From Candidatus Bathyarchaeota archaeon (GTDB taxonomy: Archaea; Thermoproteota; Bathyarchaeia; Bathyarchaeales; Bathycorpusculaceae): DNA of 17,573 nt. The position numbers were made by a program, and so were the translations under genes. Shown piece by piece: positions 1-17,573 of the stretch. The DNA is taken from contig CAVZKL010000002.1 of assembly GCA_963775895.1 (NCBI GenBank), positions 1 through 17,573 of the forward strand, given 5' to 3'. Each line of letters starts with the position of its first letter. The stretch's first letter is position 1. The notes under the pieces were generated by a model. That model made no database searches. It was not told the origin of the DNA and worked only from the letters and a program-made list of their open reading frames with translations.

Positions 1-161
1 GAACTAATGCCTAAAAGATAAAACCCACGCACTCCAACTAGCTCAGGGTGGTGAGGATTAGCACCCAAACGAGGTCCTCATTCGTGGACCGTTCCACACC
101 TATGCTCACAATGGTTCAAGTTTCTATCATCCCCATACCCAAAAGGGTTCAAAACCTGAGA

Positions 162-236
162 TGGGGCTGCCCGGATTTGAACCGGGGTCTAAAGCGCCCG
201 AGGCTTCAAGCCTAGACCAAACTAGCCGACAGCCCC
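162..236 (-). tRNA. tRNA-Pro (anticodon CGG), intronless, CCA not encoded
   Basis: Reverse complement reads GGGGCTG...GAAGC-CT-CGG-GC-GCTTT...CCCGG-TTCAAAT-CCGGG-CAGCCCC-A, giving a full cloverleaf with a GGGGCTG/CAGCCCC acceptor stem and a TTCAAAT T-loop. Confidence 0.96.
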
Positions 237-351
237 AATTGTCGACAGTGTCATTTTCGGACCAGAAAATAAGTGTTCCCTAACACCTTTAAACCCTTAG
301 TTCACAACCGTTGCAAGAAATGAAATAAGGAAGAAAGACGCTGGTCAAGGT

Positions 352-5556: not shown

Positions 5557-5635
5557 CATATTTGGATCCTAATATTCATGATACATTGAAACCGAGGAGG
5601 GGAGGTGCACAATAAGCTTTTTTTCAGCGAATAAA
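5557..5635 (-). repeat. Copy A of the ~80-bp duplicated promoter/leader cassette
   Basis: First 49 nt are identical to 14077-14125; the rest differs by 1 indel and 2 substitutions. Contains minus-strand AAAAAAAGCTTATT (BRE/TATA-like). Confidence 0.95.
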
Positions 5636-8360: not shown

Positions 8361-8825
8361 CTAGAACTGTTGAAGAACGTCCTTCTTCTCGACAATGTAA
8401 CCACAATAATGGCACTTCAACGACAAGGGTTCTTCAGAATCAACGTAGAACTTGGCCTTAACGGGTTCATTGCTATTGCTTATGCAAGCCGGGTTCGTGC
8501 ACTTGATAATGCCCTCGATGACCTTGGGTAACTTCACTTCCTCCTTTTTCACCACTTTGTAGTCACGAATTATGTTTATGCTTGCGTGCGGTGCGATCAA
8601 AGCAATCTTGTGCACTTCTTGGGGTTTGAGTTCTCGACCTTCAATTTTGACGATATCCTTCCTCTTGAAACGTTTGCTCGGTACGTTCATGGCTATTGTG
8701 ATGGGGCTCTCTTCTTTACCGGTTATTCCTAGGATTTTCACCACATCTAGCGCGTGTCCACTCGTAATATGGTCAATGACAGTGCCATTCTTGATTTTAG
8801 AAACACGCAACTCAGTTTCCATCAT
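8361..8825 (-). CDS. pyrI: Aspartate carbamoyltransferase regulatory chain
   Basis: IKNGTVIDHI, KDIVKIE and Zn ligands CTNPACIS...CHYC. Confidence 0.98.
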   Translation of the reverse strand: MMETELRVSKIKNGTVIDHITSGHALDVVKILGITGKEESPITIAMNVPSKRFKRKDIVKIEGRELKPQEVHKIALIAPHASINIIRDYKVVKKEEVKLPKVIEGIIKCTNPACISNSNEPVKAKFYVDSEEPLSLKCHYCGYIVEKKDVLQQF

Positions 8826-8970
8826 CTGGAAGTTCCCCTCTCAGGACATGCCTTATGCGGTGCACACAGATAAAAAACTTCACTCTGTCCACAACAACTT
8901 CAAAGTGCGTTCTCCAAAGGTTACCGCTAACGCTTATTAGGGGTAGTTGAAGATTTTCCGTTGAGGCAAT

Positions 8971-9441
8971 ATGGTGGTGCGAAAGAAGAGCTGGTCAGAA
9001 AAATTGGCAGACAGCAAGGACCTGCCACGAGTTGAGAAAATCAACGCCAAAATGAGCACGCGCTGGGGAGCGGGCACAATAGTCGTTCCAGCTCCGAGAG
9101 AAGTCGACGAGATCATGAGAAAAGTGCCGGAGGGGAAAGTGACGACAATAAACGAAATTCGTGCCGCTCTGGCGAGAAAACACAACGCTACCATTGGCTG
9201 TCCGATCACGACCGGGATTTTTGCACGAATTGCAGCGGGCGCAGCAGAAGAACAAAGGGCGAAGGGGACGGACATTACGCCCTATTGGCGAACGCTTAAG
9301 GCTTGCGGAGAAATAAACGCGAAATATCCAGGAGGAGTCGATGGTCAGAAAAGGATTCTGGAGAAGGAAGGACACAAGATCGCTCGGAAGGGCAAGAAAT
9401 ACGTTGTAGTAGACTTCGAAAAGTCATTGGCTAAAATTTGA
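8971..9441 (+). CDS. MGMT-family DNA-binding protein, alkyltransferase-like (no active-site Cys)
   Basis: VPEGKVTT...PYWRT where active MGMT has PCHRV; GGVDGQKRILEKEG tail. Confidence 0.85.
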   Translation: MVVRKKSWSEKLADSKDLPRVEKINAKMSTRWGAGTIVVPAPREVDEIMRKVPEGKVTTINEIRAALARKHNATIGCPITTGIFARIAAGAAEEQRAKGTDITPYWRTLKACGEINAKYPGGVDGQKRILEKEGHKIARKGKKYVVVDFEKSLAKI

Positions 9442-9527
9442 CCGAAAAGTAATGCCACGCCAGGCCTATTTCGGCTGTCGGCTTCTTCAATAGCAGGCTT
9501 GCATGGTGACAAATTCTTATCTAGTAG

Positions 9528-10475
<948 letters not shown>

Positions 10476-10491: not shown

Positions 10492-11490
10492 TCAGGCTCC
10501 TTCGAAACGGTCAAAAAAGACAAGGGTTCCTGTCGCTTCGCACAAGGGACATTTGCGCAGCAGACCGTACCAGCTTTTCCTGCAATGCACGCAGTATGTG
10601 AGTCTGCGTTCGTAGGTGAAGAAGGCGACTTGATTTTCAGCGAGCTGTTTTGTTATCGTTACAAGTTCGTCTGTTTCAATCTTGGCATCACCGAGTCCGA
10701 TCACGGTGAGGCTTCCGCTTTCGCTCAGTTCGGTGGTTTTTGCGTTGAAAGCCATAGGCTCGGTGAGCTTTCCAGCGCTGAGGGTTGATCTGTTGGTTGT
10801 TGAGTAGAAGGGTTTTTCCCTTGGGCCTGAAAATCTCACTTTTGCGATACCGTACTTCTCGACGTCAGCCTGTGCGAGTCTTTCTCCAGCGTCATCATTG
10901 AATAGCAATGCGGGAGAGACGCGTTTTCCTCGTCTCTTTCCGATCTTGTGAATGTAGTTTGAGACGTTCTGTCCCACTTCTGAGGTGAATGCGAGGGTTT
11001 TCTCTGGGTTTAGGTTTCCTTCACAGAATGCTTCCGCGGCTTCTCTGAGTCCCGCGAGGTTTACTATTCGGGAGCACTTGTCCAATCTGAAGTATTGGTC
11101 GCCGTTCTCGCCTTGCATTATGAAGGGGAGCAGGTTTCGGCCTCGGTGTCTCACGAACGTGTACTTGATTTCTAGGGCTCGGTTTGCCATTTCTGTTTTT
11201 TCTTTCAGGGTCTCGAGGAACTTTGTCTTGTCTTTTCCTGCTTCGTAGGCAACGCGTGGCACGTTGACTGTTACCGTGCCCAGTAACCCCGTGCGCAGAG
11301 TGTCTGTTTCCCAGTCGCCGTCTGGGTCTGGGCTCAGCCGAAAGCCTGTTGGGGAAAAGGTGTCGTGGGTTTGTTCTTTCTTGAGCAGGTTGGCAAACGA
11401 GACGATGCCCGTGTCTGAGGCGAGTTTGTGTGCTTTCAGTAGCAGGGCTCTTGCTCTTTCGTCTGTGAATGTTTCGGGACGAATCTTCAC
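10492..11490 (-). CDS. nrdD: C-terminal half of an NrdD-like (class III RNR fold) protein, catalytic motifs degenerate
   Basis: GLLGTVTVNVPRVAYEA, GLREA, ERLAQADVEKYG and CVHC-x10-CPLC match the NrdD pattern. TGFR replaces GCR and there is no RxxGY. Confidence 0.8.
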   Translation of the reverse strand: MKIRPETFTDERARALLLKAHKLASDTGIVSFANLLKKEQTHDTFSPTGFRLSPDPDGDWETDTLRTGLLGTVTVNVPRVAYEAGKDKTKFLETLKEKTEMANRALEIKYTFVRHRGRNLLPFIMQGENGDQYFRLDKCSRIVNLAGLREAAEAFCEGNLNPEKTLAFTSEVGQNVSNYIHKIGKRRGKRVSPALLFNDDAGERLAQADVEKYGIAKVRFSGPREKPFYSTTNRSTLSAGKLTEPMAFNAKTTELSESGSLTVIGLGDAKIETDELVTITKQLAENQVAFFTYERRLTYCVHCRKSWYGLLRKCPLCEATGTLVFFDRFEGA

Positions 11491-12695
11491 GGTGAGGTTT
11501 GGCCGGTCAGCGGTTTGTGTGTTCTTTCTTCATCGAGAGCTTCGAGCAATAGGCTTGCTAGCAGTTGGGCTTGTTCTTTGAAGTCTTTGTACGTTCCGAC
11601 GCGTTTTCCGAGGGCGCCGATTGCGGGTTTCTTTTCTAGGAAGCTGGGTGGAGCCAGTTCCAGGCCGAGTGAGACGTTTGTGTGTCGGGTCAGGTTGGAT
11701 GTGAAGAGGCGTAGTAGCTGTTTGATTTTGGTGGGTTCGACGTTTTTGGCGAAGGGGGACAGGAAGACGTTGAAGTAGTCGACTGTTTGTGTGCTGTCGA
11801 CTTCTCTGGCGGTGTAGAGCAGTGCGTTGAGGGTGAGGTCGATGGCGTGTTCGAGGTCTTGCGGTGGTGGGTACGATTGAAGGTTGGGGTTGATTTCTTC
11901 GAGGTTTAGGCCTTTTTCTATGAAGAATCTGAGGTCGTGCATTATCTCGCTTGGTTTTAGGATCCAGGAGTTTAGGTTGTCGATGTGTAGTGCTCCTGAC
12001 AGGTGTGCGTCTGAGATGTCTCTTGGGAGGATGTTCAGCAGCGTGTATTCTTTGAACACGGTTTGTCCGGCGAGTTCTTGTACTGAGGGTGTTGCTTGGA
12101 GGTTTTTGTTCTTTGTTTCGATTAGAGTGGTTACGTCGTGGACGGGGACGCCGAGTCTTGTGAGTTTGTGTCGGTAGTCTTCGAGGCCGTTTTCTATCAG
12201 GATGGTGTTTACGACTTCTCGTACGAGGGGGGCGGTGAGGTATTTGGTTTTTGAGCGGGTGAGTTGTTTTTCTGCTTCTTTGGCGATTTTTTGTGCGAGT
12301 TCTGCGGGCATCTTGGCTTCTTTTATGAGTGAGTTGGCGATTTTGTTCGTGTCGAATTCTTCGAGTGCGAGACGGCTGGTGCGGACGAGGGTGGTTTTGG
12401 TTTTAAGGGCTTTTTTGTCTATGCGGTCTGCGACGTCGATGACCATTTTGCCGAGTTCGGTGAGGAGGTATTTTCTTGTTTCGACGTCTGTTTCGGCTAG
12501 GTCTGCTTTTAGCAGGAATTTTAGGTGATAGGCGAATCTTCCTGCGTCTCGGCTTGGGTTCATTTTTAGTTGGCTCATGAGTTCTGTGTAGGAGAGGGGG
12601 CCTCTGTCGAAGAGCAGGTTTAGTATTTGCAGTCTCAGGGGTGAGGAGACGGCTTTGAGCACTCTTACTCCTCGCACGCGTTGCGGTGTGGACAT
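11487..12695 (-). CDS. nrdD: ArsR-type HTH + ATP-cone + N-terminal half of NrdD-like fold
   Basis: LKAVSSPLRLQILNLL...YHLKFLLKADL (ArsR wHTH); VRTSRLALEEFDTNKIANSL...LVREVVNTIL (ATP cone); DAHLSGALHI...HDLRFF (NrdD). No Cys in 402 aa. Confidence 0.85.
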   Translation of the reverse strand: MSTPQRVRGVRVLKAVSSPLRLQILNLLFDRGPLSYTELMSQLKMNPSRDAGRFAYHLKFLLKADLAETDVETRKYLLTELGKMVIDVADRIDKKALKTKTTLVRTSRLALEEFDTNKIANSLIKEAKMPAELAQKIAKEAEKQLTRSKTKYLTAPLVREVVNTILIENGLEDYRHKLTRLGVPVHDVTTLIETKNKNLQATPSVQELAGQTVFKEYTLLNILPRDISDAHLSGALHIDNLNSWILKPSEIMHDLRFFIEKGLNLEEINPNLQSYPPPQDLEHAIDLTLNALLYTAREVDSTQTVDYFNVFLSPFAKNVEPTKIKQLLRLFTSNLTRHTNVSLGLELAPPSFLEKKPAIGALGKRVGTYKDFKEQAQLLASLLLEALDEERTHKPLTGQTSP

Positions 12696-12745
12696 CCTTT
12701 CTCGCCAAACCCCTCGTGGTGGTAAGCGTACTATTGGCGGCTTGG

Positions 12746-12753
12746 GTTTAAAG
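12746..12753 (-). promoter_or_regulatory. TATA box for the ArsR-NrdD-like gene
   Basis: CTTTAAAC on the minus strand, about 50 nt upstream of ATG 12695. Confidence 0.45.
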
Positions 12754-12972
12754 CTGTTAGGATTATTTGGGTTTTCTCTTTCGCGCGTGTTAAACGCTTT
12801 AGTCGAGGGTGGACTTTCTGATTTTTGGACAGAAATGTCTGTTGAGTGGTAGCGTGTATATCGGTTTTGGTAAGTAGCTTTATATGTTATAGAAGGGCTG
12901 GAGTATTGTTCTAGAAGATTTGGACAGATGTTTCACACTGAATCGTTTAAATATGTCGTAAGCAGAACTTGA

Positions 12973-14076: not shown

Positions 14077-14156
14077 CATATTTGGATCCTAATATTCATG
14101 ATACATTGAAACCGAGGAGGGGAGGGTACACAATAAGCCTTTTTTCAGCGAATAAA
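14077..14156 (-). repeat. Copy B of the ~80-bp duplicated promoter/leader cassette
   Basis: Near-identical to 5557-5635, same orientation, 8520 bp away. Confidence 0.95.
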
Positions 14157-14222
14157 CCCCCCTTTTCCGACACGCAGATTAATGAGAACATTCATGAGTA
14201 TACAGAGAGAGGGGAAGGCTAC

Positions 14223-14846
14223 TTGCAGAGCAGATGGCAAACGTTAACCGTCCTTCTAGCCATGCTCCTGTCAATCAGCATCCTCTGGTCCCTACAAACC
14301 GCAACCCACACCTCCAGCGTCTCAGCCATCCAAACAGCCGGAACCCTCAAAGTCTACTGGGACCCCAACTGCACCACACAAGTCACCTCCATAGACTGGG
14401 GAAACATGAGCCTAGGACAAACAAAGAACACAAAACTCTACATCAGAAACGAAGCCTCAACCCCAGCGTACCTCATCGCAAGCGACAACAACTGGAACCC
14501 CACAGAAGCCCAGAACTACATCCAATTCGCCTTCGACATCCAAGGCCAAAAAATCCAAGCCGGCCAAGTCAAGAACGTGACCTGCACCCTCACCGTCTCC
14601 TGGGAAACAACCAACATATCCACCTACACCTTCAACATCCTCATCAAAACCCTAGACTCCCTGCCCGGCGACCTCAACAACGACGGCACAGTCAACATCA
14701 AAGACATAGCCATCTTCGTAAAACTCTTCGGCACCACACCAGCCTCACCACAATGGAACCCAAACGCCGACCTCAACGGAAACCTCAAAATAGACATGCG
14801 AGACATAGCCCTAGCCGTACAAGCCTTCGGAAACACAGCATCATAG
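14223..14846 (+). CDS. Secreted protein with C-terminal dockerin-type double Ca-binding domain
   Basis: Signal-like TLTVLLAMLLSISILWSL; PGDLNNDGTVNIKD...WNPNADLNGNLKIDMRD. Start moved to TTG 14223 because 14082-14222 covers repeat copy B. Confidence 0.85.
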   Translation: MQSRWQTLTVLLAMLLSISILWSLQTATHTSSVSAIQTAGTLKVYWDPNCTTQVTSIDWGNMSLGQTKNTKLYIRNEASTPAYLIASDNNWNPTEAQNYIQFAFDIQGQKIQAGQVKNVTCTLTVSWETTNISTYTFNILIKTLDSLPGDLNNDGTVNIKDIAIFVKLFGTTPASPQWNPNADLNGNLKIDMRDIALAVQAFGNTAS

Positions 14847-14987
14847 CACTCTCACAACCGAAAAACAAGCAGGCACGCGCCAGTTGCCGAATCTTGTCCT
14901 CTATGCAGTTTTGCGGAAATCACACAGTGCCACTGTCGCTCTTATTCTTCTATAAGCGTTCGCTTTAAAACAGTCGAACGCAAGATT

Positions 14988-15908
14988 ATGTTATTGGGGA
15001 CCGATGTGCCCATAAATGAAATAGACCTGCTCCTGACCTACAAGTGCAACCTGGAATGTGATCACTGTTTTGTTTTCGGAAGTCCTGACGCAAGAGGAGT
15101 CATGAAACTGTCCGACATAGAGGAGATCCTGAATCAAGCAGAAAAAGTGGGAAGCATCGAATGGATCTACATAGAAGGCGGTGAACCAGTCCTCTACTAT
15201 CCAATCCTCTTGCACGGTCTAAGAGAAGCGAGGAAACGTGGGTTCAAAACAGGGTTCATCACGAACGCCTACTGGGCAACGTCAGTCGAAGACGCGAAGA
15301 AATGGCTCAAACCCATCGCAGAGATAGGCATACAAGACGCGATAATAAGCGATGACCTCTTCCACTACGGAAAAGACGAAGAAAACCTCGCGAGCTACGC
15401 CTTTCAGGCGGGCAAGGAGCTTGGGATACCCGTAAGCAACATCCACATCGAGGATCCAAAGCAGTACATGAAAGAAAAGGAATGGAAGGGAAAACCCGTC
15501 ACGGAGGGCGCAGTGCTCTTCAAGGGAAGGCCCGCCGTGAAGCTCGTTGAAGGATTGCCGAGGAAACCTTGGAAAACGTTCGACAAATGCTTGGACGAGG
15601 ATTTCTCCAATCAGAAACGAGTGCACGTTGATCCTTTCGGATACGTTCATCTGTGCCAAGGAGTAACGATGGGCAACATGAAAAGGACGCCGCTTCACGT
15701 CCTGTTCAAAGAGTTCGACCCGCAAAAACATCCCATATGCGGACCGATCCTGAAAGGAGGCCCGGCTGAACTCGTCAGAACTTACCATGTTCAACATGAA
15801 GAAGGCTACGTTGACGAATGCCACCTGTGCTATTCGACTCGCTTGAAGCTGAGAAAGATGTTCCCTGAGGTTCTTGCACCAGATCAGATGTATGGAACAA
15901 GTAGTTGA
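14988..15908 (+). CDS. Radical SAM protein with C-terminal auxiliary Cys cluster
   Basis: CNLECDHC, EGGEP, ITNAYW; distal C...HVDPFGYVHLCQ...PIC...ECHLC; TTTAAA about 20-25 nt upstream. Confidence 0.92.
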   Translation: MLLGTDVPINEIDLLLTYKCNLECDHCFVFGSPDARGVMKLSDIEEILNQAEKVGSIEWIYIEGGEPVLYYPILLHGLREARKRGFKTGFITNAYWATSVEDAKKWLKPIAEIGIQDAIISDDLFHYGKDEENLASYAFQAGKELGIPVSNIHIEDPKQYMKEKEWKGKPVTEGAVLFKGRPAVKLVEGLPRKPWKTFDKCLDEDFSNQKRVHVDPFGYVHLCQGVTMGNMKRTPLHVLFKEFDPQKHPICGPILKGGPAELVRTYHVQHEEGYVDECHLCYSTRLKLRKMFPEVLAPDQMYGTSS

Positions 15909-16003
15909 CTACCGGGCGTGCAAGTTTTATAACCTCGCGCGCCACAGAAAATGCTCCCAAAAGGTTATTTTCTGGTTTCACCAAGCCATAATGGGGGAAG
16001 AGC

Positions 16004-17573
16004 GTGCATAGAAGGGCTGTTTCCAGAATAATTCTGGCGTTGTTGTTGGCTTATCTGTTTACTTTGCCATTTCAGATTCAGCTTGGCAGAGCAGAGCCAA
16101 ATTTGAATCGATCACGTCTGCCCATCGCCAACGAAGTCCACCTTCCTGTTCCATTCTACTATCAAGAAAAGGACTACTACTGCGGTCCAGTTGCTCTCGA
16201 AATGGTGTTCAATTTCTATGGCGAAAACATATCACAATCTGAGATAGCGTGCGTTGCAAGAAGCATCGGCGACCCCCTGTACGTGACCTACACTGACGAG
16301 CTGAGGAGGGCAGGACACTTCAGCAATATCAGCACTTCAATGGGCGATGAGCTTCCAGCCAACATTTCGGGATACACTCTACGAAAACTGGGCTACGCGG
16401 CGTCTGAAGCGCAAGGCATGGACCTGACAAAACTTAAGAACCTTCTGGACCAAGGCAAGCCACTTGTATTGCTGATGTGGTACAGTAGTTATCACGTTTC
16501 AACTCATTATCGTGTAGTAACCGGCTACAATGACACCCACATTTTTCTGCATGACCCGTGGAATAAACCTCTATGGGGCGGAACATACGGTGGTCCCAAC
16601 ATAGCCTTCAACAACAGCCAGTTCACGGACCTTTGGTCATACTTCAACTATTGGGCTCTCTACGTTTCTCCATGGATGATAAACCTCTCCACACCAGCCT
16701 ACGTTCCTCCCGGAACGCCATTTCAAGTAGAGTCGACGATCACGTATCCCCAAACACTACCGAACGCCTTTTTCACCTATCCCGCCTCTTCATGCAACGC
16801 ATCGATAACCTTTCCTGCTAACCTAAGTCTTGCTCAGGGCGAAAGCCAAAAGAAAACAGTGGGTGCGGGTTTCCTACAAGAAGGAAACAGTTCCAGTTTG
16901 AGCTGGACGTTGGTTGCCAACTCTTCGGTAACTGGAACGATTAGCATAACCACTGAAGGACTGATTTCAGGGTCAGTAGCAGCCAGTCCGAACTATACTG
17001 CTTACAATTACGACGACAGGATAGGTGCAACAGTGAACTTCACCATATATCTGCCTTCGGCATTGCATGACGTAGCCGTGACGAATGCTATTCCTTCCAA
17101 AACTATCGTCGGTCAAGCCTACTGCCTGAACGTAAGCGTCACAATAGCAGACCTGGGAAGCTACGCGGAAGACTTCAACGTAACCGTCTTCGCTAACGAC
17201 ACTGCCATACAGACAAAAAACATAACTCTCACAAACGGAGTTTCAACAAACATCACCCTCGTCTCGAATACCACTGGTCTCGTCTTTGGCAATTACACAG
17301 TGAGTGTCCGTGCAACAGCAGTTCCAGGCGAAACGAACACGGCAAACAACAATTTCACTTGCCCTATTCCAGTTCACGTGGGTGTTCCAGGCGACGTGTC
17401 CAGCACAACTGTTGGAACGTACGACGGAATAACCAATATGAAAGATGTCGCCTACATGATTGCGTTATTCAACGCCAAGCCAAGCTCACCCAACTGGAAC
17501 CCTAATGCGGACGTGAACAACGATGGCATCGTCAACATGAGAGACATCGCCATAGGCATTGCCTACTTCAACA
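16004..17573 (+). CDS. Secreted C39-like cysteine peptidase + CARDB/Ig-like + dockerin (partial, runs off the window; not in the ORF track)
   Basis: Hand translation from GTG 16004 is open to the end: signal peptide, VPFYYQEKDYYCGP...HYRVVTGY...LHDPW, HDVAVT (CARDB-like), PGDV...WNPNADVNNDGIVNMRD. Confidence 0.88.
   Translation, partial: MHRRAVSRIILALLLAYLFTLPFQIQLGRAEPNLNRSRLPIANEVHLPVPFYYQEKDYYCGPVALEMVFNFYGENISQSEIACVARSIGDPLYVTYTDELRRAGHFSNISTSMGDELPANISGYTLRKLGYAASEAQGMDLTKLKNLLDQGKPLVLLMWYSSYHVSTHYRVVTGYNDTHIFLHDPWNKPLWGGTYGGPNIAFNNSQFTDLWSYFNYWALYVSPWMINLSTPAYVPPGTPFQVESTITYPQTLPNAFFTYPASSCNASITFPANLSLAQGESQKKTVGAGFLQEGNSSSLSWTLVANSSVTGTISITTEGLISGSVAASPNYTAYNYDDRIGATVNFTIYLPSALHDVAVTNAIPSKTIVGQAYCLNVSVTIADLGSYAEDFNVTVFANDTAIQTKNITLTNGVSTNITLVSNTTGLVFGNYTVSVRATAVPGETNTANNNFTCPIPVHVGVPGDVSSTTVGTYDGITNMKDVAYMIALFNAKPSSPNWNPNADVNNDGIVNMRDIAIGIAYFN

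Follow-up and report, generated by a model that had tools for sequence, protein, structure and literature searches.

A gene on the minus strand of a 17,573-nucleotide (nt) stretch of the Candidatus Bathyarchaeota archaeon genome (assembly GCA_963775895.1, contig CAVZKL010000002.1; the whole stretch is called the window below) encodes an ArsR/SmtB-type winged helix followed by an ATP-cone-like domain and the body of a class III (anaerobic) ribonucleotide reductase, NrdD. The gene belongs to a family whose members share this architecture and fold, have systematically lost the catalytic residues of NrdD, evolve under purifying selection, are distributed widely in Bathyarchaeia and Nitrososphaeria, and are linked to the genes of true reductases, nrdD or nrdJ. 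In our opinion, the family is probably a reductase-derived, nucleotide-sensing transcription regulator of reductase and nucleotide genes, which would play the part that NrdR plays in bacteria. The earlier note on this DNA, made from its letters alone, had proposed a reductase scaffold reused as a pseudo-enzyme regulator. The catalytic loss, the selection and the gene order agree with this proposal, whereas we only infer nucleotide sensing and, likewise, the DNA binding, dimerisation, ligand and target genes of the family.

Domain architecture and predicted fold

In the window, the gene is read as two minus-strand open reading frames (ORFs) of 402 and 332 amino acids (aa), 12695..11487 and 11490..10492, the overlap of which is GTGA (Table 1). 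Pfam places HTH_5/ArsR at residues 18–68 (31.3 bits, cut-off 22), DUF7347 at residues 12–87 (33.9 bits, cut-off 27.6) and ATP-cone at residues 106–174 (31.5 bits, cut-off 25.8) of the 402-aa ORF. The NRDD family matches residues 196–385 of the same ORF with profile positions 2–187 of 562 and residues 9–320 of the 332-aa ORF with positions 215–530; the scores are 54 and 109.3 bits, and the cut-off is 26.2. Together with the motifs, these matches reproduce the domain order that had been read from the sequence: ArsR winged helix, ATP cone, NrdD-like barrel and zinc site. The motifs LKPSEIMHDL, SPTGFRL and CVHC-x10-CPLC are all present as described, and the entire 402-aa ORF is indeed free of cysteine.

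A database protein that is 96% identical, P0001 (723 aa), forms a single chain across the junction of the two ORFs. The AlphaFold model of P0001 has a mean confidence score (pLDDT) of 87.3, and low confidence is confined to the linkers (residues 83–89 and 169–190). The best Foldseek matches of the model are the class III reductases of S. thermophilus, T. maritima, P. copri and phage T4 (E from 4e-25 to 1e-17, target TM-score 0.60–0.74). The winged helix in the model has the order helix, helix, helix, two-stranded wing, long helix. It is the most conserved part of the protein, and its recognition-helix motif RDAGRFAYHLK hardly varies within the family, from Bathyarchaeia to Nitrososphaeria. Its best sequence match among solved proteins is HlyU (E 0.004).

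Loss of the catalytic residues

The alignment used for the following counts comprises 130 family members, the eight true NrdDs encoded beside the gene in relatives and the NrdD of the genome itself. The first active-site cysteine is retained in none of the 130 members; the LKPSE region is aligned with AYCVGW and RPFCQE of true NrdDs. In the finger loop, the canonical S-x-C-C-R-L becomes S-x-G-[F/L/C/V..]-R-L. The cysteine preceding the thiyl cysteine is replaced by Gly in 128 members, and the thiyl-position cysteine, which survives in 20, is replaced by Phe in 81 (including the protein of the window) and by Leu in 19. The Phe of SPTGFRL is aligned with the Cys of SMCCRL in the genome's own NrdD and of mGCRs in the S. 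thermophilus enzyme. The first active-site cysteine, at the LKPSE position, is the second one of the active site beside the thiyl-radical cysteine and corresponds to Cys79 of phage T4. The Asn of the NLPR motif and all four cysteines of the zinc ribbon are present in all 130 members.

The column of the radical Gly contains Gly in 22 of the 130 members, and the chain stops one residue later in 119. When the family profile is compared with the solved NrdDs, the G-C-R of S. thermophilus falls on G-[F/L]-R and the Arg of RxxGY on the Arg of the terminal D-R-F. Judging by these alignments, the R-F-E-G-A of the window is a vestige of RxxGY in which the chain ends one residue after the Gly. The FFDRFEGA end and the loss of RxxGY, both recorded before, were confirmed, with the nuance that the remaining Arg and Gly align with those of R-x-x-G-Y. 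More distant helix-bearing members have a 23-residue tail resembling the radical domain, with the Gly-Tyr replaced; in the clade of the window this tail is gone. On the NrdD equivalog TIGR02487, P0001 scores 211.5 bits at a cut-off of 326.35.

A profile search of 1.84 billion cluster representatives found 885 proteins at E ≤ 1e-30, and the best 150 of them were examined. The helix signature G[KR]F.YH is present in 78. Fifty-one helix-bearing representatives can be aligned at both cysteine columns; the first cysteine is found in none of them, the thiyl-position cysteine in two and RxxG[YF] in none. Another 24 representatives, which have no winged helix, retain the first cysteine, the thiyl cysteine and RxxG[YF] and are ordinary NrdDs. 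Across these alignments, the catalytic loss appears to be systematic and tied to the winged helix. The earlier note had considered that ArsR-fused homologues might keep GCR and RxxGY, this copy merely decaying; the counts of 0/51 for RxxG[YF] and 0/51 for the first cysteine speak otherwise.

Between the copy in the window and a second copy of the gene in the same bin (contig C16, see below), the ratio of nonsynonymous to synonymous substitution rates (dN/dS) is 0.13–0.16 in both halves, with dS of 0.10–0.15. The family is under selection and is not decaying; the losses counted in 130 and 51 sequences are found together with purifying selection, the combination that the earlier note had proposed to look for.

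Conservation is complete for the barrel, the NLPR Asn and the zinc site, and the thiyl-position cysteine persists in 20/130 and 2/51 sequences. This could mean that the protein is still an enzyme with a chemistry independent of cysteine and of the glycyl radical, for example nucleotide binding or hydrolysis in the old active site. Such an activity is highly improbable, as the lost sites are not replaced by any conserved nucleophile or radical site, several Nitrososphaeria copies are devoid of cysteines other than those four of the zinc site, no activase reaches the cut-off in any of five Nitrososphaeria genomes, and the score stays below the NrdD equivalog cut-off (211.5 vs 326.35). In addition, an N-terminal winged helix is typical of regulators.

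Distribution and phylogeny

The gene was found in 38 of 40 relatives, and the two genomes without it are 64–65% complete. It is present in 300 of the 401 sampled Bathyarchaeia genomes and in 191 of the 219 high-quality ones; one family lacks it altogether (0/71). A scan for the recognition-helix pattern, with one genome per prokaryote species, revealed at least 596 stretches, at least 594 of which encode relatives. The best 80 of these at least 594 loci, to which the Nitrososphaeria locus counts given below refer, all belong to Nitrososphaeria: Nitrosopumilus, Nitrosotalea, Nitrosotenuis and Nitrososphaerales. Several Nitrososphaeria proteins contain no cysteines except the four of the zinc site and end no more than about 10 residues past the last one. 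ESM Atlas clusters with the same three Pfam families are labelled Promethearchaeota, Nanobdellota and Woesearchaeota, which is an unconfirmed lead based on the atlas labels only.

Databases name the same protein either "anaerobic ribonucleoside-triphosphate reductase" or "ArsR family transcriptional regulator"; it had been expected that automated annotation would call the gene nrdD, and it does.

A maximum-likelihood tree of the barrel was constructed from 86 rows (600–830 aa, one matched stretch, at most 35% gaps), a filter that removed the Nitrososphaeria-type representatives and the intein-sized proteins. A split with support of 1.0 separates all 18 true NrdDs and nine other helix-less proteins from all helix-bearing proteins. 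When the tree is rooted on the genome's own NrdD, the node joining the helix-bearing tips has a support of 0.176. Nine helix-less proteins on the true-NrdD side (P0215, P0217, P0220, P0221, P0222, P0223, P0230, P0231 and P0259) are without RxxGY; the zinc site is absent in most of them, and the first cysteine is present in some. They may be independent non-catalytic offshoots or fragments.

Gene order and reductases

In family-level relatives, the gene abuts pyrB as it does in the window, where the two genes stand tail to tail with 16 nt between their stops, in line with the reported proximity; pyrB is present in 24 of the 31 loci examined. In 8 of 16 order-level relatives, the gene is separated from pyrB by a true nrdD, which follows it directly and on its strand. 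The neighbouring true NrdDs carry SRITGY and CC, with scores of 517 and 533 bits on TIGR02487 (cut-off 326). In Nitrososphaeria, the gene is followed directly by nrdJ, on its own strand, at 76 of 80 loci, and the contigs of the remaining four end within 400 nt; in three loci, nrdJ is followed by a convergent pyrB. Since pyrB stands behind nrdD in Bathyarchaeia and behind nrdJ in Nitrososphaeria, the arrangement appears in both classes: the order gene, reductase, convergent pyrB is common to them, and the class of the reductase is exchanged.

The adjacent true NrdDs (L019–L026) are the closest catalytic relatives of the family (29–41% identity to the first ORF), and four of the eight (L019–L022) share with it the V-R-T-S cone hairpin and the YR..LTRLG linker. 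Unlike the family, they keep both cysteines, SRITGY and the full tail, pass the NrdD cut-off and have no winged helix. The family most likely originated from an NrdD of the type that still adjoins it in related Bathyarchaeia.

One of these loci has a small additional gene between the helix-bearing gene and nrdD (L023:3608-3886, minus strand); it overlaps the start of nrdD, and its product is glutaredoxin-like, 92 aa long and carries a CPRC motif. By eye, the same coding sequence can be recognised in the spacers of L024–L026. The finger loop of the true NrdD behind the L023 glutaredoxin-like gene reads Q-C-C-A, and we take this pair to fit a redoxin-dependent NrdD subtype.

The genome of the window has its own intact reductases, the existence of which the earlier note had left to be checked. 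The canonical NrdD (710 aa, SMCCRL, SRVVGY) scores 594.2 bits on TIGR02487 (cut-off 326.35). It is encoded on another contig than the window, with NrdG directly downstream (168.8 bits, NrdG2 cut-off 131.15) and NrdR directly upstream (157.7 bits on TIGR00244, cut-off 124.65). A class II NrdJ is encoded on a separate contig (735.7 bits, cut-off 399.95). The cluster nrdR-nrdD-nrdG (locus L001, C16:68506-73230) is of bacterial type, although it is located in an archaeon. NrdR was found in this genome and in 23 of 24 family relatives, but among the other order-level relatives only 2 of 16 have it; wherever it occurs, its neighbour is an nrdD of this type. The confinement of NrdR to genomes with the separate nrdR-nrdD cluster suggests that the cluster was acquired as a unit. 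In the family to which the window belongs, the nrdR-nrdD cluster is present and the reductase beside the gene is gone, and the gene is still kept.

The statement that no NrdG-like activase is adjacent was upheld. The nearby radical S-adenosylmethionine (SAM) gene (14988..15908), 2.3 kb away, was rejected as an activase with 23.9 bits at the NrdG2 cut-off of 131.15.

In five Nitrososphaeria genomes, the gene itself is the sole NRDD match. NrdG2 above the cut-off was found in none of the five (other NrdG models were not searched), nor was NrdR found in any. The protein thus seems to occur where class III chemistry cannot take place. The alternative put forward in the earlier note, a modulator of the real NrdD, is disfavoured because these genomes carry the protein and have no other NrdD match.

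Reading frame and the second copy

Compared with the C16 copy, with P0001 and with contigs of public sequencing runs, the window lacks one base at about 11500. Contigs from four of four public runs (three studies) have one extra G behind 11500; these are assembled contigs, two of them at a depth below 5, and indicate presence only. Apart from this, an indel within the gene was reported only for a single contig from a single run, namely a one-base variant at 12604. The stop of the first ORF is a TGA produced by the frame break. Homologues in relatives are single open frames of about 680–800 aa (about 710–800 aa in close homologues), one being cut at the contig start.

We conclude that the gene forms a single ORF of about 734 aa, or did so until very recently; its division in the window most likely reflects an assembly error of one base or else a mutation of very recent date. 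In view of the GTGA overlap, a genuine split with translationally coupled halves was also considered, but was rejected because the frame is intact in homologues and in other assemblies. The "fusion" of ArsR and NrdD that had been claimed holds for the family, in which it is one ORF, whereas in the window itself the two ORFs are in different frames.

The second copy of pyrI-ogt-pyrB-gene in the same bin is located at C16:5410-10817 (locus L002). It is 93.2% identical to the region of the window over 5446 nt, with 41 alignment gaps. This copy reads straight through the junction of the window and has breaks of its own at the equivalents of about 12601 and about 11138; its indels sit after GGCC or in runs of C. 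The presence of the copy can be explained either by strain mixing in the bin (contamination 3.46%) or by a real duplication.

If the base loss were real, the gene would be a pseudogene in this genome, on its way to being lost because nrdR-nrdD-nrdG had been gained, and the family would be functional only elsewhere. Both copies of the bin being frame-broken at different places and the presence of NrdR would fit such a loss. It is nevertheless quite unlikely: dN/dS between the copies is 0.13–0.16 on either side of the break, the frame is intact in P0001 and in 4/4 near-identical public contigs, and an intact copy is kept in 23 of 24 family relatives with NrdR. Moreover, the breaks of the window and C16 lie in short G/C runs after GGCC, where base-calling errors often fall, and resemble such errors.

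Comparison with known systems

The family resembles NrdD (phage T4, T. maritima, P. copri, S. thermophilus) in the Pfam family, the fold, the N-terminal cone, the NLPR Asn and the Cys4 zinc ribbon, and its member in the window has a vestigial C-terminal R-x-x-G. It differs from NrdD in that the first cysteine is missing, Phe occupies the thiyl position (in the window), the chain stops right after the vestigial Gly, the score is under the NCBIfam cut-off and a winged helix is added at the N-terminus. The family also occurs in genomes without NrdG2 above the cut-off or any other NrdD match. By its fold it falls within the NrdD superfamily, but four features that define the enzyme are lacking.

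NrdR consists of a zinc ribbon and an ATP-cone and has about 150 aa. A cone-type domain and the proposed role of a nucleotide-sensing regulator beside reductase genes are common to NrdR and the family. However, the DNA-binding module of the family is a winged helix and not a zinc ribbon, the protein is about five times larger, comprising a whole dead reductase, and in this genome a real NrdR is encoded elsewhere. No match of P0001 to the NrdR model TIGR00244 was found at E ≤ 0.001.

Like ArsR/SmtB proteins such as HlyU, the head of the family passes the Pfam HTH_5 cut-off, matches HlyU and shows the helix and wing order in the model; unlike them, it is below the NCBIfam cut-off and is fused to about 640 further residues. 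ArsR/SmtB proteins have Cys-based metal sites, which cannot be present here because the first 402 residues contain no cysteine.

MocR/GabR regulators combine a winged helix with an aminotransferase-fold sensor, and the MocR domains still bind the cofactor. The family may be comparable to them in having an N-terminal winged helix tethered to a dimeric effector sensor with an enzyme fold, although both the enzyme fold and the DNA-binding family are different. We place the family among the one-component regulators derived from enzymes and the reductase regulators built on a cone. The literature searched, which included the main texts of PMC9669993, PMC9531940, PMC3019208 and PMC2795772, yielded no description of this fusion; the supplements of reductase phylogeny papers might list such sequences.

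Proposed role of the family

The following scheme can be proposed. An NrdD would have acquired the winged helix; both of its active-site cysteines would have disappeared, and its glycyl-radical domain would have been lost or cut short. An NrdD-like dimer would bring two winged helices together, while the reductase body and the cone would keep allosteric nucleotide pockets reporting the levels of (deoxy)ribonucleoside triphosphates ((d)NTPs). The ligand state would then alter binding near the promoters of reductase genes and perhaps of other genes of nucleotide metabolism.

A number of observations weigh against this probable regulatory role. On the NCBIfam ArsR/SmtB model (NF033788), the winged helix scores 27.2 bits at a cut-off of 55. 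The hairpin of the cone reads V-R-T-S-R, whereas canonical cones have V-x-K-R-D-G. As described in PMC12662201, the Lys-Arg pair of the hairpin contacts the nucleotide phosphates (Lys9/Arg10 in EcRNR of class Ia, Lys19/Arg20 in StNrdD of class III). In the family, this phosphate-binding pair is Thr (120/130) and Ser (130/130), which makes nucleotide binding at this place uncertain. The Arg residues flanking Thr-Ser are kept in 130/130 and 118/130 members, and the Lys and Ile of helix 1 are kept too. Some of the homologues have no precomputed ATP-cone match. Asn takes the place of the specificity-site Gln in 114/130, with a nearby Glu in 127/130, in a register uncertain by two positions. Furthermore, in this genome the gene is not adjacent to a reductase and NrdR is present, the reading frame is broken in both copies of the bin, and the adjacency of genes seen elsewhere would equally fit a protein-level partner of reductases.

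To the same side of the balance belongs the fact that comparisons of upstream regions established no operator. The upstream block conserved in genus relatives is a core resembling a B recognition element (BRE) and TATA box. Nine of 10 genus relatives contain the sequence TTCCYYAAYNNCTTTAAAC exactly (0 mismatches) and a single time each. In eight of them it lies a short way upstream of the orthologue; in the ninth, G008, it is on another contig, away from the gene. It was rejected as an operator: its look is that of an ordinary BRE/TATA, and because it occurs once per genome, it yields no regulon. A search for a motif shared by the regions upstream of the gene, of the genome's own nrdJ and of its own nrdR-nrdD gave only trivial 8–9-mers.

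In 24 Nitrosopumilaceae loci, GATC words occur 1.54 times per 100 nt upstream of the gene and 1.27 times in the spacer before nrdJ, compared with 0.66 in other non-ORF DNA and 0.44 in the rest of these loci. The inverted repeat GTYAA-N4-6-TTRAY is found in 31 of 76 pre-nrdJ spacers (shuffle mean 2.7, maximum 8 in 200 shuffles); for these motif statistics, the loci are related and the shuffles preserve base composition only. We regard both as leads and not as evidence. Among these candidate repeats, some of the perfect palindromes are located 28 nt past the stop and could be RNA hairpins. Before nrdJ in Nitrosopumilaceae, the inverted repeat is of the GTCAA-N5-TTGAC type; a further lead is given by TGTCAA half-sites before nrdD in Bathyarchaeia.

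With no operator found, the family could also be a non-catalytic reductase-like subunit, that is, a decoy, chaperone or allosteric modulator of a real reductase or its partners, in which the winged helix would make contacts with proteins or tether the subunit non-specifically to the nucleoid instead of recognising promoters. The selection acting on the whole NrdD body and zinc ribbon would be in accordance with such a subunit, and the adjacency to nrdD/nrdJ fits it as well as it fits a regulator. Still, this is unlikely. In Nitrososphaeria, where the neighbouring gene encodes a class II enzyme and NrdD is lacking, the NrdD dimer surface has no obvious partner. Conservation is strongest in the winged helix, which has a recognition helix that is nearly invariant across classes and which matches DNA-binding ArsR/SmtB proteins such as HlyU.

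Returning to the probable regulator of transcription, a broader and more tentative suggestion is that in much of the Archaea deoxyribonucleotide synthesis has this family as its native regulator, of ancestral origin: a (d)NTP sensor that, by means of the winged helix, would switch nrdD or nrdJ, depending on which reductase the organism uses. A frozen class III reductase would then read the nucleotide pools via its old specificity or cone pockets. The scope of this possible ancestral role might cover Bathyarchaeia and Nitrososphaeria, including aerobic ammonia oxidisers, and, by the unconfirmed atlas leads, Asgard and DPANN archaea.

To our knowledge, the control of ribonucleotide reductase in archaea without NrdR is unsettled. 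For them, the family is a concrete candidate regulator of the reductase that can be tested in culture, where relatives of the gene-bearing Nitrosopumilus, Nitrosotalea and Nitrososphaerales genomes are available. If the proposed role is true, a whole radical enzyme has been recycled as the sensor of a transcription factor. The name "anaerobic ribonucleoside-triphosphate reductase" wrongly implies class III capacity and anaerobic DNA synthesis in Bathyarchaeia and in aerobic ammonia oxidisers. The finding extends past this window to abundant, cultured archaea.

Other features of the window

The features of the gene and its surroundings are listed in Table 1.

Table 1. Coordinates of the regulator-like gene and associated features in the window.
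Feature	Position	Strand	Remarks
First ORF, 402 aa	11487..12695	-	Winged helix, cone-like domain and first third of the NrdD-like barrel
Second ORF, 332 aa	10492..11490	-	Remaining NrdD-like barrel, zinc ribbon and truncated tail; listed start is an internal GTG
ArsR/SmtB-type winged helix	12492..12644	-	Pfam HTH_5, DUF7347
ATP-cone-like domain	12174..12380	-	Pfam ATP-cone
NrdD-like ten-stranded barrel	10531..12110	-	Pfam NRDD matches on both ORFs
LKPSEIMHDL, first active-site Cys position of NrdD	11931..11960	-	Residue 246 of the first ORF
SPTGFRL finger loop	11335..11355	-	Residue 46 of the second ORF
Cys4 zinc ribbon, CVHC-x10-CPLC	10540..10593	-	Motif
DRFEGA, putative remnant of the S-R-x-x-G-Y glycyl-radical motif	10495..10512	-	Alignment with true NrdDs
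Frame break	11498..11502	none	One base absent compared with other copies
Probable BRE/TATA promoter core CCTAACAGCTTTAAACCC	12744..12761	-	Kept upstream of orthologues
pyrB, conserved convergent neighbour	9528..10475	+	Context, outside the protein

Beyond pyrB, pyrI and an ogt-like gene are located. In the region 8361-10475, the ogt-like gene separates pyrI (minus strand) from pyrB (plus strand), so that the two are not co-oriented. In the relative L019, pyrI and pyrB are divergent and nearly abutting.

The homology with the C16 copy stops at the promoter core 12744-12761. A second copy of this core at 266-296 (plus strand) is located beside tRNA-Pro (160-237, minus strand) and precedes a GNAT acetyltransferase gene (352-1251). 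In relatives, that tRNA-Pro and the upstream half directly precede the orthologue. Because of this arrangement in relatives and the duplication of the promoter core in the window, about 12.4 kb seems to be inverted, with breakpoints in the shared promoter core.

A 78-bp dispersed repeat is present at 14077-14154 and 5557-5633, and one copy is located just upstream of the C16 gene. It has 36 blastn matches (92–100% identity) across the contigs of the genome, some of them partial (41–58 nt). No Rfam or tRNA match to the repeat was found. It could be a mobile promoter-like element or resemble a miniature inverted-repeat transposable element.

The region 14082-17572 encodes a dockerin-bearing protein, the radical-SAM enzyme (306 aa) and a C39-like peptidase with a dockerin. 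Another frame break might explain the overlap of ORFs 14082-14846 and 14234-14968, which are read in different frames. The best match of the radical-SAM enzyme is a YydG-type peptide epimerase, with 62 bits, far under the cut-off. This cluster may be a peptide-maturation set.

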